DNA of 49,062 nucleotides from the IMG/VR virus record IMGVR_UViG_2917891409_000001, positions 1 through 49,062 of that record, one strand, 5' to 3'. Within the stretch, counting starts at the first letter, position 1; each line of letters begins with the position of its first letter. Origin of the DNA: a virus (lineage: Duplodnaviria; Heunggongvirae; Uroviricota; Caudoviricetes). The notes beneath the pieces are model-generated. The model saw only the letters and a list, made by a program, of their open reading frames with translations. It was not told the DNA's origin and made no database searches. Shown one piece after another: positions 16,698 to 21,510 of the stretch. The position numbers and the translations under genes are program-made.

Positions 16698-16972
16698 GGT
16701 TGACGATAACTAATATCTGGCGCTATATTCTGTGTGTTGCCGCAAAATCGGCACACGGGATTGGCGTCCCGGATAAGGTAATCGCGACTACTACACGCCG
16801 CGAGCGTGTTTTTTATTGTCGTAAGCATACGCACATCTGAATTATGGTGGGGCGTGTAGGGCCGACTTCGGTCGGGCCGGTTGATTACCCCGGTTACGCC
16901 AACCCTACATGTCTCACCACCAAACTGATTGGCGTCAGCGGTGGTGGTTAACTTGATTTATAGGTAATCATC

Positions 16973-17578
16973 ATGAGCACACAACTAGTCTTTCATCAAA
17001 CAAAATTCCATCCTGTTAAACACAACAACAGTATCTGGCTTACTGCCGTTGAGATTGCTCAAGCTCTCGGATATAAAAAATCTGATGCCGTAACTCAGAT
17101 CTACGATCGAAATTCCGATGAATTTAGGGCAGATATGACTGAGACCCTCAATTTGAGTGTCTCAGGGAACTACCAGAAAACAATACGCATTTTCTCCCTC
17201 CGTGGTGCCCATTTGATCGCTATGTTCGCCCGCACTCCTGTAGCCAAAGAATTCCGCCGCTGGGTTCTGGATATTCTCGATCGAGAAGTTCAACAATCCC
17301 CAATCACAAAACAATTCACTGATAACGAACTTTGCACACTCGCCTGGTTATGGCGAGCAGGGGATGTGATGTTAACCGCCTGCCAGAATGTTACTCCACT
17401 TCTTCAGGTTGCGGAGCATCGCGAAGCCGGTCGCTTTACTTCTATTGAGCAAGAATATCCCCAGATACTACATAAGGCGCGCGAAATCCTTGCCAGAGAA
17501 ACGGCACATGTAAGATTCCAGCCGTGGCAGGATGATAAGTGGAGCCGAGTATTGCCGCATTTGCGTTCTGAGCAGTAG
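16973..17578 (+). CDS. phage antirepressor-like protein (Bro-N/KilA-N-type N-terminus)
   Basis: 201 aa; HNNSIWLTAVEIAQALGY motif. Confidence 0.6.
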   Translation: MSTQLVFHQTKFHPVKHNNSIWLTAVEIAQALGYKKSDAVTQIYDRNSDEFRADMTETLNLSVSGNYQKTIRIFSLRGAHLIAMFARTPVAKEFRRWVLDILDREVQQSPITKQFTDNELCTLAWLWRAGDVMLTACQNVTPLLQVAEHREAGRFTSIEQEYPQILHKAREILARETAHVRFQPWQDDKWSRVLPHLRSEQ

Positions 17579-17816
17579 CAATAAAGTTTCCGGTGAGAAA
17601 TGTCACCAGCATTTTGTTATGAAACGGGTATTGGCGGTATATTGGGGGCGGGGCTTTAGTTATTAGGTGTCGAGAATTAATTGTTTGTAGCAATATAAAA
17701 AGGAGCGCTTAAGTTCGTTTATTTTTTAAGCTTCATATACATAGTGGATAAAAATGAGAACCACCCGCTGAACGGGTGGTTTTGCGCAAGTTAAATTTTA
17801 TAATTTCAGTGAATCT

Positions 17817-18536
17817 TTACGCTGTAATAATGCAAATGATAGTTGAAAAAAACACAATCAGTCGATGGATTCTCCGTAGGATGCAACTGCCTGAGCGACG
17901 CAAAAAACGATCAATACACTCTATTTCTCCATAATCACGCAGGCAATAATAAGTATTATTGTCTTTATCAAAAGCGTAAATGCTACAAATACCCTTAGGC
18001 TCACAACTTGCGTCCCATCCACTATTAGATAACGTGCCCCATTCCTGGTAAAGCCCTGCGTTAACTTCTCGATTGATAATATGCGGTCCACTATAGTTAT
18101 CATAATCGTAACTATAGATGTCACGTGCCTCAGGAAAATTCCCGTTCATGTTTTCAATCCACGGTAAAATATCTTTAACTGAGTTATAAAGTTCAATGCT
18201 GTATTTGAAAAAACGCTTCACAATAAAAACATAGATGCCGGCAGATTTGTTTGTTGATTTATCAGTGGCGAAAATGACAAAAATCTTCCCAACGCACTTT
18301 TCATCTACGCCCGGAAAAGTTACTGTGCCATCCTGGCTAACCGCCAGAACATTATTGTCTGCATTAGTGCTACAGGTCCATTTTACCTTGTCATTATTAA
18401 TAGGGTCATTATCAATGACCATCTTGAAGGTTGCTCCTGGGAACAAACTGTTAGGGAAACAGTAACCACTCTCCATATCATTTTTAATATCAAAAATATG
18501 ACCATCAACTAACACGCCTGTAATTTTGCTCATCAT
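17817..18536 (-). CDS. hypothetical protein, paralog B (divergent C-terminus)
   Basis: homologous to 4810-5454 and 20319-20999; start chosen at ATGATG after AAAGAGAG RBS. Confidence 0.55.
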   Translation of the reverse strand: MMSKITGVLVDGHIFDIKNDMESGYCFPNSLFPGATFKMVIDNDPINNDKVKWTCSTNADNNVLAVSQDGTVTFPGVDEKCVGKIFVIFATDKSTNKSAGIYVFIVKRFFKYSIELYNSVKDILPWIENMNGNFPEARDIYSYDYDNYSGPHIINREVNAGLYQEWGTLSNSGWDASCEPKGICSIYAFDKDNNTYYCLRDYGEIECIDRFLRRSGSCILRRIHRLIVFFSTIICIITA

Positions 18537-19437
18537 TGAACTCTCTTTGTTTGTTAAATAAAAAGTTTTATTCCTGAACAACGGAACACGCTGATATTAA
18601 TGCAACCAATGAATTGTTGTTGTTATTTGGAGGTTATATAGTGGTATGAATGTTATTATGCGATGTCTCTGAGTGATGGGGTAAGGATTATATGATTCGC
18701 TTTTGAGATTTACCTATGTCAGGCGTTGCTGTTCATGTTCGTCCCCGTTGTCAGTCTTCTTAGTCTGAGCTAATGTGATCATCAATGGGTTATCAGTTTT
18801 CTCTGAAGTTATATAATTAATTGAGCGCCATAGCACCATGGGGCATTGTTGAATTTCATCTTCAATTGATTTTCCATAATCAACTCGCCATAATCATGTC
18901 ATCGGAGCCTGAACACCTCCGGTGACTTCTGCGCTAAACGGGGACGTTTATGCGCACACACAATCTAAACTCTCTTCTCCCTTCACAGATGCAGAAATGC
19001 ACCTGCGATTTTTTGCATTCGGTGTTTTTGGCAGCCAAGTACAGGGAGTCTCTGTTTGTCTGGCGGCTAAAGGTGATATGGAAATCTTGATGTCTTGGCC
19101 TAAAGTAGTTGCAACAGTTGGAGCGGTTATAGTGGTAGTAGTGATCATCGCGCCACCCATTTGCAAGGGTTGACGACATTATTTATCCGGCGCTATATTC
19201 TGTGCGTTGCCGCAAAATCGGCACACGGGATTGGCGTCCCGGAATACTACTCAACGCATACCGCGTTAAGCGGTTTTTTTATGCGCTAAGCACGGCTACG
19301 CCCAAATTATGGTGGGCTGTGTGAGGGCTTCTTCGGGAGCGCCGGGTTTGAGTAGCCGGTTACGCCAACCTTGCACAGTTCACCACCAGTCGATTGGCGT
19401 CGTTGGTGGTGATGGTTAACCTCATGAGGTGATACTA

Positions 19438-20040
19438 TGACTACTCAATTAGCATTCCACAAAAACGACGTTTACCCCAATTTGCCACAATAACAGAATT
19501 TGGCTTACTGCCACTGAAGTTGGTTTAGCTCTGGAATATGCGGACGATAAAGCAGTTCAGCGCATTTACTCTCGTCACTCAGATGAATTTACAGATATGA
19601 TGACAAGGGTGGTCAAAGTGACCACCCCTCGTGGAATGCAGGAGTCTCGAGTATTTAGCCTTCGCGGAGCCCATTTGATCGCCATGTTCGCACGAACTCC
19701 TGTGGCCAAAGAGTTCCGCCGCTGGGTTCTGGATATTCTCGATCGAGAAGTTCAACAATCCCCAATCACAAGACAATTCACTGATAACGAACTTTGCACA
19801 CTCGCCTGGTTATGGCGAGCAGGGGATGTGATGTTAACCGCCTGCCAGAATGTTACTCCACTTCTTCAGGTTGCGGAGCATCGCGAAGCCGGTCGCTTTA
19901 CTTCTATTGAGCAAGAATATCCCCAGATACTACATAAGGCGCGCGAAATCCTTGCCAGAGAAACGGCACATGTAAGATTCCAGCCGTGGCAGGATGATAA
20001 GTGGAGCCGAGTATTGCCGCTTTTGCGTTCTGAGCAGTAG
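19438..20040 (+). pseudogene. antirepressor-like gene copy 2, interrupted by +1 in A5 run (19461-19465)
   Basis: ATG frame stops after 18 codons; removing one A gives FHKTTFTPICHNNRIWLTATEV aligning with copy 1 FHQTKFHPVKHNNSIWLTAVEI and an intact roughly 200-aa ORF. Confidence 0.5.
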
Positions 20041-20318
20041 CAATAAAGTTTCCGGTGAGAAATGTCACCAGCATTTTGTTATGAAACGGGTATTGGCGGT
20101 ATATGGGGGCGGGGCTTTAGTTATTAGGTGTCGAGAATTAATTGTTTGTAGCAATATAAAAAGGAACGCTTAAGTTCGTTTATTTTTTAAGCTTCATATA
20201 CATAGTGGATAAAAATGAGAACCACCCGCTCAGCGGGTGGTTTTGCGCAAGTTAAATTTTATAATTTCAGTGAATCTTTACGCGGTAATAATGCAAATGA
20301 TAGTTGAAAAAAGCACTA

Positions 20319-20999
20319 TCAGTCGATAGACTCACCGTAGGATGCAACTGCCTGAGCGCTGCATATAACAGCAGTATGCTGGGTATATCCAGTATCCTTC
20401 AGGTGATAATAACTATTATTATCTTTATTAAAAGCGTAAATGCCACAAACACCATTATTCTCATTACTTGTGTCCCATCCACTATTAGCTAACGTGCCCC
20501 ACTCCTGGTAAAGCCCTGCGTTAACTTTTCGATTGATGATATGACTCCATTCGCTACTTTCATAATTAAAGTCACTATCGATATCATGTATCCCAGGAAA
20601 TTCTCCATTCATGTTTTCAATCCACGGTAAAATATCTTTAACTGATGTATAAATTTCAATGCTGTATTTGAAAAAACGCTTCACGATAAAAATATAGATG
20701 CCGGCAGATTTATTCGTTGATTTATCAGTGGCGAAAATGACAAAAATCTTCCCAACGCACTTTTCATCTACGCCCGGAAAAGTTACTGTGCCATCCTGGC
20801 TAACCGCCAGAACATTATTGTCTGCATTAGTGCCACAGGTCCATTTTACCTTGTCATTATTAATAGGGTCATTATCAATGACCATCTTGAAGGTTGCTCC
20901 TGGGAACAAACTGTTAGGGAAACAGTAACCACTCTCCATATCATTTTTAATATCATAGATATGGCTATCAACTAACACGCCTGTAATTTTGCTCATCAT
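20319..20999 (-). CDS. hypothetical protein, paralog C
   Basis: near-identical N-terminal two thirds to paralog B; C-terminus like paralog A. Confidence 0.55.
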   Translation of the reverse strand: MMSKITGVLVDSHIYDIKNDMESGYCFPNSLFPGATFKMVIDNDPINNDKVKWTCGTNADNNVLAVSQDGTVTFPGVDEKCVGKIFVIFATDKSTNKSAGIYIFIVKRFFKYSIEIYTSVKDILPWIENMNGEFPGIHDIDSDFNYESSEWSHIINRKVNAGLYQEWGTLANSGWDTSNENNGVCGIYAFNKDNNSYYHLKDTGYTQHTAVICSAQAVASYGESID

Positions 21000-21510
21000 T
21001 GAACTCTCTTTGTTTGTTAAATAAAAAGTTTTATTCCTGAACAACGGAACACGCTGATATTAATGCAACCAATGAATTGTTGTTGTTACTTGGAGGTTAT
21101 ATAGTGGTATGAATGTTATTATGCGATGTCTCTGAGTGATGGGGTAAGGATTATATGATTCGCTTTTGAGATTTACCTATGTCAGGCGTTGCTGTTCATG
21201 TTCGTCCCCGTTGTCAGTCTTCTTAGTCTGAGCTAATGTGATCATCAATGGGTTATCAGTTTTCTCTGAAGTTATATAATTAATTGAGCGCCATAGCACC
21301 ATGGGGCATTGTTGAATTTCATCTTCAATTGATTTTCCATAATCAACTCGCCATAATCATGTCATCGGAGCCTGAACAACTCCGGTGACTTCTGCGCTAA
21401 ACGGGGACGTTTATGCGCACACACAATCTAAACTCTCTTCTCCCTTCACAGATGCAGAAATGCACCTGTGGTTCTTTGCATCCAACGTTTGACCTCTGCG
21501 GAGGTGAAGC

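Follow-up and report, generated by a model that had tools for sequence, protein, structure and literature searches.

A tandem of two probably allelic antirepressor modules with predicted RNA control between ren and ninB of a lambdoid phage genome from Escherichia

Layout of the ren–ninB interval

The window analysed in this work is the complete 49,062-nucleotide stretch of a Caudoviricetes genome (IMG/VR record IMGVR_UViG_2917891409_000001, positions 1 to 49,062). Its ren–ninB interval, a slot occupied by ninA in lambda, contains two head-to-tail copies of one module. In each copy, a promoter-like site is followed by an isrK RNA, a C4 RNA, an antirepressor-like gene (ant), a terminator, a convergent gene denoted X, and a linker of about 150 bp (Table 1). 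Local alignment of the window places copy 1 at 16698–19018 and copy 2 at 19168–21481, with 88% identity over 2375 columns, and a self-comparison revealed long direct repeats at a spacing of 2460–2470 bp. The resemblance between the two copies is far beyond chance. An earlier sequence-only reading had described a tandem of about 2.46 kb at 16716–21475 in the place of lambda ninA, each copy with a structured leader, an antirepressor-like gene on the plus strand and a convergent gene on the minus strand. Our self-alignment returned two copies at nearly those coordinates, and the list of open reading frames (ORFs) confirmed the convergent genes. The leader was found to consist of isrK and C4 RNAs above the Rfam gathering scores, and the antirepressor-like gene was identified by its Bro-N and P22AR_C domains.

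The identity between copy 1 and copy 2 is sharply mosaic, with its lowest values in the leader and the beginning of ant (see the identity rows of Table 1). The unique segment between the copies has its counterpart in other phages directly upstream of an isrK of the copy-2 allele type. Among 101 loci compared, referred to by L numbers in the following, two isrK/C4 pairs were found in only two: the window itself (L019) and L046. Just 3′ of each ant gene (17590–17660 and 20052–20122), the sequence resembles the 3′ end of ren (16630–16697) with roughly 65% identity, and these stretches include a coding stretch ...MKRVL.VY.... The isrK–C4–ant cassette is bracketed by ren-3′-like sequence, which looks like a scar of cassette entry into the ren–ninB region.

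Table 1. Features of the tandem and its flanks (window positions), with the identity of copy 1 to copy 2 by segment
Feature	Position	Strand	Remarks
ren-like gene	16398–16697	+	left flank; PHROG Ren-like exclusion protein, E 5.6e-41; ORF list
copy 1 vs copy 2	16698–17250		56–79% identity, many indels
promoter-like site, isrK-1	16700–16729	+	TTGACG-18-TATATT; consensus scan 10/12; first bases of copy 1
isrK-1 RNA	16738–16814	+	RF01394, 61.2 bits; own terminator 16793–16809 plus U-run
C4-1 antisense RNA	16840–16924	+	RF01695, 74.2 bits, full-length match
upstream ORF, 35 codons	16844–16951	+	overlaps C4-1; ends 21 nt before ant1 start codon
ant1 leader target sites	16929–16970	+	UUGGCGU 16929–16935; GGUAAUCA 16963–16970, Shine–Dalgarno region of ant1
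ant1	16973–17578	+	intact, 201 aa; Bro-N + P22AR_C; PHROG anti-repressor Ant
copy 1 vs copy 2	17251–17850		97–100% identity
X1 terminator	17759–17781	−	intrinsic, 10-bp stem, between convergent genes
X1	17817–18536	−	invasin D4–D5-like; 239 aa as read, from MMSKIT; extra A in 17897–17902
copy 1 vs copy 2	17851–18143		74–87% identity
copy 1 vs copy 2	18144–19018		94–100% identity
linker copy 1	18866–19018	+	149/153 identical to 21329–21481; recombination junction at right end
unique inter-copy segment, 149 bp	19019–19167	+	5 mismatches/149 vs L001/L004
promoter-like site, isrK-2	19170–19199	+	same site as 16700–16729, recurring at copy-2 start
isrK-2 RNA	19208–19280	+	RF01394, 60.7 bits; terminator 19260–19274
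C4-2 antisense RNA	19305–19390	+	RF01695, 72.7 bits, full-length match
upstream ORF, 36 codons	19309–19419	+	overlaps C4-2
ant2	19437–20040	+	frame broken by extra A in 19457–19461; one A removed gives 200 aa
X2 terminator	20220–20242	−	terminator scan
X2	20319–20999	−	intact, about 225 aa, invasin D4–D5-like
linker copy 2	21329–21481	+	immediately upstream of ninB
NinB/YbcN-family gene	21511–21966	+	right flank; PHROG NinB/Orf, E 2.2e-51; ybcN annotation in relatives

RNA leaders, antirepressors and gene X

Both RNAs of each leader exceed the Rfam gathering scores, which are 50 bits for isrK and 45 bits for C4. The motif UUGGCGU is located in the loop of the second isrK hairpin as well as just 3′ of C4, and is complementary to the constant ACGCCAA of the C4 RNAs (16896–16902 in C4-1, 19362–19368 in C4-2). 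A variable contact was seen by eye: the loop of the second C4 hairpin complements both the ribosome-binding or start region of ant and the isrK linker. In copy 1, the loop UGAUUACC (16882–16889) has an 8-nt perfect complement in GGUAAUCA, and isrK-1 holds UUGGCGU (16761–16767) together with GGUAAUC (16777–16783), i.e. copies of both C4 target sites. In copy 2, the loop reads UUGAGUAG (19348–19355). The target sites of ant2 are UUGGCGU (19394–19400) and CUACUCAA (19441–19448, codons 2–4), and isrK-2 holds the same two motifs at 19231–19237 and 19247–19254, respectively. The copies belong to different allele classes, namely UGAUUACC/GGUAAUC(A) for copy 1 and UUGAGUAG/CUACUCAA for copy 2. Matches of each C4 to its own targets span 7–8 nt, compared to 4–5 nt for C4-1 on copy-2 sites and 0–5 nt for C4-2 on copy-1 sites.

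The isrK and C4 pair was also observed upstream of ant in seven related loci. A wider survey of 80 IMG/VR loci with an isrK core provided 33 unique leaders in 13 C4 loop classes, which represent at least 11 distinct pairing specificities. In 12 of the 13 classes, the C4 loop has a perfect complement of 5–9 nt in its own isrK linker and one of 6–9 nt at its own ant start; at both places, UUGGCGU accompanies the class-specific 7–9-mer. The own match averages 7.2 nt (isrK linker) and 7.5 nt (ant start), as opposed to 3.3 and 4.7 nt for other classes; in a permutation test on the summed own matches, 0 of 10,000 permutations reached the observed value. Moreover, two-sided compensatory changes were found among the alleles at 9 of 24 predicted C4 pairs. 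Two IMG/VR loci (L063 and L081) carry a C4 loop, GTTTGTGTAG, that is one base off the copy-2-type loop. It no longer fits their own isrK and ant sites (CTACTCAA), the own match being down to 4–6 nt, and this cassette could be naturally derepressed (“virulent-like”) or decaying.

The only open frame between C4 and ant is the ORF of 35–36 codons that overlaps C4, and its peptide is not conserved. Across the survey, an ORF of 33–45 codons from a conserved AUG at the 5′ end of C4 is open in 12 of the 13 classes, with varying frame and peptide, and in class L030 it continues in frame into ant. By analogy, this ORF may be a counterpart of orf45 in the prophage Gifsy-1 (see below).

Ant1 matches Pfam Bro-N with 51.2 bits (cut-off 25.6) and P22AR_C with 57.3 bits (cut-off 22.4), and PHROG anti-repressor families are matched as well. 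The identical protein occurs in several cryptic-clade Escherichia. The truncated ORF of ant2 retains P22AR_C at 57.8 bits, and the corrected Ant2 is collinear with Ant1. Over the first 74 residues the two proteins share 47% identity, followed by a stretch in which 125 of 127 residues are identical; the switch point (about 17190/19650) is located inside the Bro-N domain. A different repressor or partner specificity of Ant1 and Ant2 is possible. Based on the family annotation and on AnrP of Gifsy-1, both proteins would bind and inactivate a phage repressor.

Gene X has a G+C content of 38%, compared to 51% for the window. With the extra A removed, X1 has 225 aa with its stop at 17858, is identical to protein P0001, and shares the ending ...AQAVASYGESID with copy 2 and all other family members. 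X2 is 82% identical to X1 at the amino-acid level and 88–89% identical to the X protein of L010. The family comprises proteins of 218–233 aa, all of which start at the first strand of a D4-like domain. The sequence profile of X matches invasin D4 with E = 9.5e-7, and its start corresponds to about position 304 of the invasin chain (1cwv_A numbering), which is assigned to D4 by Pfam Invasin_D4. An AlphaFold2 (AF2) model based on 21 sequences gave a predicted local distance difference test score (pLDDT) of 89 and a predicted template-modelling score (pTM) of 0.87; a Foldseek search against viral structures returned only weak matches to single immunoglobulin (Ig) domains, with a template-modelling (TM) score of about 0.25. 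Judged by profile and model, X is a stand-alone homologue of the invasin D4–D5 Ig plus C-type-lectin-like receptor-binding superdomain. Apart from a few members in E. coli, the family is nearly restricted to cryptic Escherichia clades, E. ruysiae and E. whittamii, and neither megablast against 5,426 complete E. coli genomes nor tblastn against 50,697 phage records detected X. Four X-family loci are present in Escherichia sp. E1V33 and three in E. whittamii. The window itself contains a third paralog, X3 (4810–5454, minus strand), in the left arm near the integrase, which shows 42% identity to X2 and matches Pfam Invasin_D4 above the cut-off (34.3 bits). Its 5′ end is probably clipped by a homopolymer difference at about 5465, where the window reads T8 and L016/L018 read T7.

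The two halves of X evolve differently. Pairwise ratios of nonsynonymous to synonymous substitution rates (dN/dS) are 0.1–0.3 for the Ig half and 0.65–1.3 for the lectin-like half, with 2.4 in one very close pair. Still, the lectin-like half holds invariant motifs, and the combination of these motifs with a dN/dS of about 1 points to positive selection, or to a reshuffling of alleles, at variable patches. The diversifying pressure that the sequence-only reading had proposed from diverged C-termini may thus be right on the grounds of the lectin half, albeit not on those of the C-termini. In view of the lectin fold, a diversity-generating retroelement was considered as the source of variability; no reverse-transcriptase domain was found among the ORFs scanned, although no systematic test was made.

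In relatives, the ren–isrK and ant–ninB slots carry interchangeable cargo, namely PD-lambda-1, a DUF4041/SNIPE-associated gene, an AAA ATPase plus RloB, HEPN and a TagO-annotated gene; X occupies the ant–ninB slot. The slots flanking the ant cassette in E. coli relatives (including L002, L004 and L005) also contain a frameshifted theta-subunit-like gene and insertion sequence (IS) elements. Together, these slots give the impression of a hotspot for cargo or defence genes that is built around the linker repeats; no specific account of a defence hotspot between ren and ninB emerged from a literature search. A role of X in phage exclusion is a guess based on this location.

Sequence quality and origin of the tandem

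Positions 12319–28999 of the window are 100% identical to contig PDIH01000072.1 (GCA_004745335.1) of Escherichia sp. E2586, for which the frameshifted 239-aa X1 is recorded. The strain, which belongs to cryptic clade II and was isolated from sediment in Hong Kong, was sequenced with single-end Ion Torrent reads of 35–400 nt at 45x and assembled with MIRA and SPAdes followed by manual gap closure (PMC6639607). The frame of ant2 is lost at an A-run (19457–19461) of five A, where the closest intact alleles L001, L004 and L046 have four. A C-run at about 19473 was ruled out as the frameshift site by alignment to the intact alleles. The different C-terminus of X1 is traced to an A-run (17897–17902) of six A, which has five A in L006, L007, L008, L009 and L046. 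Compared to L007, which is 99.92% identical over 8.8 kb, the window shows seven differences: six single-base indels, five of them in one-base runs, and one substitution. Most of these differences, both frameshift sites included, recur in comparison to L046, in which ant1, X1, ant2 and X2 are all unbroken. In E2593 and E4208, two sister assemblies from Ion Torrent data, the X homologues are split into fragments. As for ant2, the 3′ end alone was seen in sister assemblies, at the edge of L020, and the gene is probably split across contigs there. Because of the Ion Torrent source, the homopolymer pattern of the indels and the intact relatives at both sites, the ant2 and X1 frameshifts are very probably homopolymer errors. 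One-base length differences to near-identical relatives were also noted at window positions 11879, 13639, 13787, 14711, 17643, 17907 and 5465, nearly all of them in one-base runs. These scattered differences fit Ion Torrent error, rendering any frameshifted or split ORF of the window suspect.

If the frameshifts were real, E2586 would have lost one gene per copy, keeping a working ant in copy 1 and a working X in copy 2. The tidy complementary pattern, with exactly one intact ant and one intact X, and the nature of A-runs as slippage sites lend this explanation some appeal. However, the ratio of six single-base indels to one substitution against a near-identical relative, the Ion Torrent chemistry behind the assembly, the fragmented X genes of E2593 and E4208, and the four intact genes of L046 all point to sequencing error, and the third X paralog is affected as well, at a T-run. 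Real frameshifts are thus considered unlikely. Regarding the sequence-only reading, ant2 is indeed out of frame and the X ends do differ in the deposited sequence, but the former probably reflects a sequencing error and the latter results from the extra A in X1. The ongoing decay it had suggested is not borne out, given the +1 indels in A-runs, the Ion Torrent assembly and the intact genes of L046.

The same reads bear on the question of whether the tandem itself could be an artefact, in which alleles of different prophages were joined by the assembler or during gap closure. Short single-end reads, manual repeat-based gap closure (PMC6639607) and the near-identical stretches common to both copies would permit such a joining. 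Yet the copies share no exact repeat longer than 289 bp, which is below the length of the longest reads and makes an assembly artefact unlikely. In addition, the independent IMG/VR contig L046 (IMGVR_UViG_2917865565_000004) has the same tandem in the same order across 8.2 kb, with 97.9% identity over window positions 13085–21339, and in E2562 two X genes lie four locus tags apart on one contig. Two other assemblies, GCA_005781105.1 and GCA_004323665.1, likewise contain both X alleles (seen in L009 with L020 and in L007 with L021), each time on short contigs that break exactly inside the near-identical stretches. Thus, the tandem is regarded as genuine and an artefact as extremely improbable. 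No tandem was found in the 50,697 phage records or the 5,426 complete E. coli genomes. The comparison of copy number with relatives, which had been proposed as a check, identified two modules in L046 and single-copy loci in L006–L009.

Copy 1, with ren on its left, is 99.4–99.9% identical to these single-copy loci. Conversely, the stretch 18891–20033 (linker, 149-bp spacer, isrK-2, C4-2 and ant2) is 95.9% identical to L001 (phage IdasGreatGrand) and L004 (E. coli H14), both of which carry a left part of the copy-2 type. L001 contains two linkers, one preceding the isrK cassette and the other preceding ninB. Alignment of the junctions shows that the common linker ends ...GATTTTTTGCAT and continues either into spacer and isrK or into ninB, the switch being located at about 19018. 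The most likely origin would be homologous recombination between two phages at the linker, as a crossover between ren–M1–X1–linker–ninB and linker–spacer–M2–X2–linker–ninB would give exactly the structure of the window. Relaxed homologous recombination has reportedly been documented in a study of lambdoid phages. Overall, the locus looks like two alleles joined by recombination, rather than a duplication that subsequently diverged.

The latter had been the proposal of the sequence-only reading, i.e. an older duplication in place, followed by divergence under diversifying selection or decay, with ant2 and one X tail degenerating. Equal gene order and length, 96–100% identity over about 1.5 kb and one frameshift per copy in the deposited sequence are in line with this view. 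However, the identity is not clock-like, as 56–79% with indels over 16698–17250 is followed by 98–100% over the next 600 bp, and unrelated E. coli phages carry alleles that match the divergent part of copy 2 with 95.9% identity. Moreover, all three pairing elements (C4 loop, isrK site and ant site) change coherently from one pre-existing specificity class to another, and both frameshifts are homopolymer +1 changes in Ion Torrent data that are absent from L046 and the single-copy relatives. Divergence after duplication is therefore not borne out and must be rated very unlikely. An alternative of intermediate character starts from an in-place duplication of the copy-1 module, after which recombination or gene conversion with a phage of the other allele, either co-resident or infecting, exchanged a patch of about 630 bp (19019 to about 19650). 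This route would explain why the 3′ half of ant2 is closer to ant1 (98–100%) than to L001 (about 95%). It would also accommodate the resemblance of the right part of copy 2 to the X-carrying phage L010 (97.2%), as well as the missing parent: no phage with a copy-2 leader plus X was found in the phage records and complete E. coli genomes searched, so that a single crossover suffices only with a parent that has not been observed; otherwise, a further exchange within ant, at about 19650, has to be assumed. On the other hand, the X2 allele differs from X1 and is nearer to the X of L010, and copy 2 is thus not simply a copy of copy 1. Aside from the linker, the single-copy phage has no obvious internal repeat for unequal crossover, and the linker serves the two-phage model equally well. 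Duplication followed by patch replacement appears fairly unlikely on balance.

Outside the tandem, four iteron-like repeats of about 23 nt (TTACCCGAATCAGGTAAA) are located at 15125–15241 inside an O-like gene (14774–15703), an arrangement typical of a lambda-type origin within gene O; the array of L046 is shorter by about 24 nt, equivalent to one repeat unit. At the left end, an ORF with a pectinesterase domain adjoins a lambda-type integrase with an arm-binding domain (702–1985 and 2121–3191, both on the minus strand). A ybhC-like pectinesterase gene lies beside the lambda attachment site, and the left end of the prophage with its chromosomal flank is probably found at about 2 kb.

Proposed mechanism and relation to known systems

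In summary, we consider it probable that the ren–ninB interval holds two allelic versions of one lambdoid accessory module, arranged head to tail and operating as RNA-controlled antirepressor switches. Judged from their leaders, the two copies fall into different classes and are probably independent switches of the P1 immI or Gifsy-1 IsrK kind. By analogy to P1/P7 immI and Gifsy-1 IsrK, the constitutive-looking promoter would give rise to a short, terminated IsrK RNA, while read-through past the isrK terminator would provide the C4-type antisense RNA, the leader and ant. The convergent gene X, beyond the terminator, would be expressed separately. C4 is proposed to pair with the ant leader via the constant ACGCCAA/UUGGCGU contact and via the variable 7–9-nt loop contact over the ribosome-binding or start region, which would keep Ant untranslated in the lysogen. 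Abundant IsrK, with copies of both sites, may titrate C4 or remodel the leader, whereupon Ant would be made and inactivate a repressor. As the variable contacts (UGAUUACC/GGUAAUCA and UUGAGUAG/CUACUCAA) and the first 74 residues of Ant differ, the two switches should be orthogonal; we infer such orthogonality in vivo, just as we do the recombination route and any function of X. In contrast, the anatomy, the Rfam assignments, the three-way complementarity, the mosaic identity, the independent occurrence and the fold are results of the analysis itself. The X protein would be a cytoplasm-made Ig plus C-type-lectin-like binding module with a fast-evolving lectin half.

Several points weigh against this interpretation, in addition to the unobserved parent phage. 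C4 repression, IsrK derepression and antirepressor activity are what we infer from homology and complementarity. No icd homologue was found between C4 and ant, C4-1 and ant1 being separated by 48 nt, and the ORF overlapping C4 may have stayed open by chance, as the sequence is rich in G+C. The variable contacts comprise no more than 7–9 nt, with orthogonality judged by perfect-match length alone. Crude RNAduplex energies that include the G-rich stem flanks did not cleanly separate self from cross targets, because these flanks pair with GGUGGUGG in both leaders; perfect-match length and the permutation test were therefore used. The exact corrected Ant2 protein was not found in the protein collection searched. 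As for X, there was no PHROG match, and neither X2 nor X3 matched PADLOC at E up to 0.1; a signal peptide is missing and the upstream in-frame extension lacks a hydrophobic leader.

A joint and more far-reaching reading would see in the isrK–C4–ant cassettes of enterobacterial lambdoid phages a family of RNA “lock-and-key” switches for induction, at least 11 of them mutually orthogonal, and in X a new family of cytoplasm-made, stand-alone binding proteins of the invasin type (Ig plus lectin) that serve as a hypervariable exclusion or sensing factor. In its entirety, this reading is speculative and seems doubtful at present. If true, stacked classes would represent two independent channels, either of which could trigger its own induction or silence incoming antirepressors, and X, encoded in a prophage cargo slot, would use its fast-evolving lectin face to recognise a phage or host protein that is itself variable. 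Should the cassettes be truly orthogonal, they would be a natural example of stacked RNA-programmed switches, each with a different 8-nt address, and would extend the hetero-immunity idea of P1/P7 to lambdoid phages. The three-way complementarity of C4 loop, isrK linker and ant start offers a simple comparative reading of the puzzling IsrK mechanism in Gifsy-1, according to which IsrK would carry decoy copies of the C4 target. In the X family, the receptor-binding fold of invasin and intimin would be used without export machinery and with fast evolution in the ligand-binding half, so far mostly in cryptic Escherichia clades. As a practical lesson, genes that look broken in an Ion Torrent draft should not be taken as signs of decay. 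The kind of cassette is already known from P1 immI and Gifsy-1 IsrK; the tandem of two specificities, the breadth of covarying three-way classes and the X family seem to represent novel variants and not categories of their own, and no description of them was found in a limited literature search.

Comparison to characterised systems defines what is shared. In common with Yersinia invasin (D4–D5) and E. coli intimin, X contains the Ig-like plus C-type-lectin-like superdomain found at the C-terminus of these adhesins, and its profile matches invasin D4. However, it has only 225 aa and lacks a signal peptide, LysM domain, beta-barrel and preceding tandem Ig repeats, so that it cannot be a surface-anchored inverse-autotransporter adhesin; instead, its gene is accessory and convergent, and is carried by prophages of the cryptic Escherichia clades. 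With the cargo and defence genes of E. coli lambdoid phages, X shares the ant–ninB cargo slot, but no PADLOC model is matched and a role in defence is guilt by location.

As regards the leader, the CI RNA of P4 (seqA/seqC) is likewise a processed antisense RNA that pairs both up- and downstream in its own transcript, and was named a structural analogue by the authors of the Gifsy-1 study (PMC4825925). The P4 system differs in that it relies on premature transcription termination of replication genes and involves no antirepressor. Gifsy-1 bears a closer resemblance. In that study (Hershko-Shalev et al. 2016, PMC4825925), short IsrK acts in trans to switch on the translation of anrP, whose product AnrP induces the prophage. 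The orf45 region downstream of isrK gives rise to a processed RNA with complementarity to IsrK, and orf45 itself is required for translating anrP. The isrK–orf45–anrP–isrJ locus has an isrK (RF01394) with its own terminator, read-through into the antirepressor gene, and a short ORF or processed RNA between the two. The order isrK, upstream ORF and antirepressor gene on one strand, with a leaky-terminator layout of the predicted transcript, matches in the window. Differences concern isrJ, for which no match at the Rfam gathering score was found anywhere in the window, the location (between ren and ninB as compared to downstream of antQ in Gifsy-1), and the two copies with different pairing sequences. 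Moreover, the middle element of Gifsy-1 is likened to P4 CI RNA and not described as a C4-family RNA in the sections of that study consulted (PMC4825925).

The immI region of P1 and P7 provides the second model. Here, too, a C4-family RNA (RF01695) is located on the same strand upstream of the antirepressor gene, C4 is flanked on either side by sequences complementary to it, those on the 3′ side lying at the translation start of ant, and alleles differ in their pairing sequences, giving distinct specificities. The a1b1/a2b2 layout of the immI targets and the hetero-immunity of P1 and P7 were reportedly described by Citron and Schuster in 1990. In contrast to P1, where C4 antisense RNA and Icd together control ant (PMC8201110), the window lacks icd and ant follows directly after C4, with only the 35–36-codon ORF overlapping C4. 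Furthermore, the antirepressor of the window is a Bro-N/P22AR_C protein, and its setting is a lambdoid nin region and not a P1 plasmid prophage. Finally, the window differs from P1/P7 immI in carrying two hetero-specific units in tandem.

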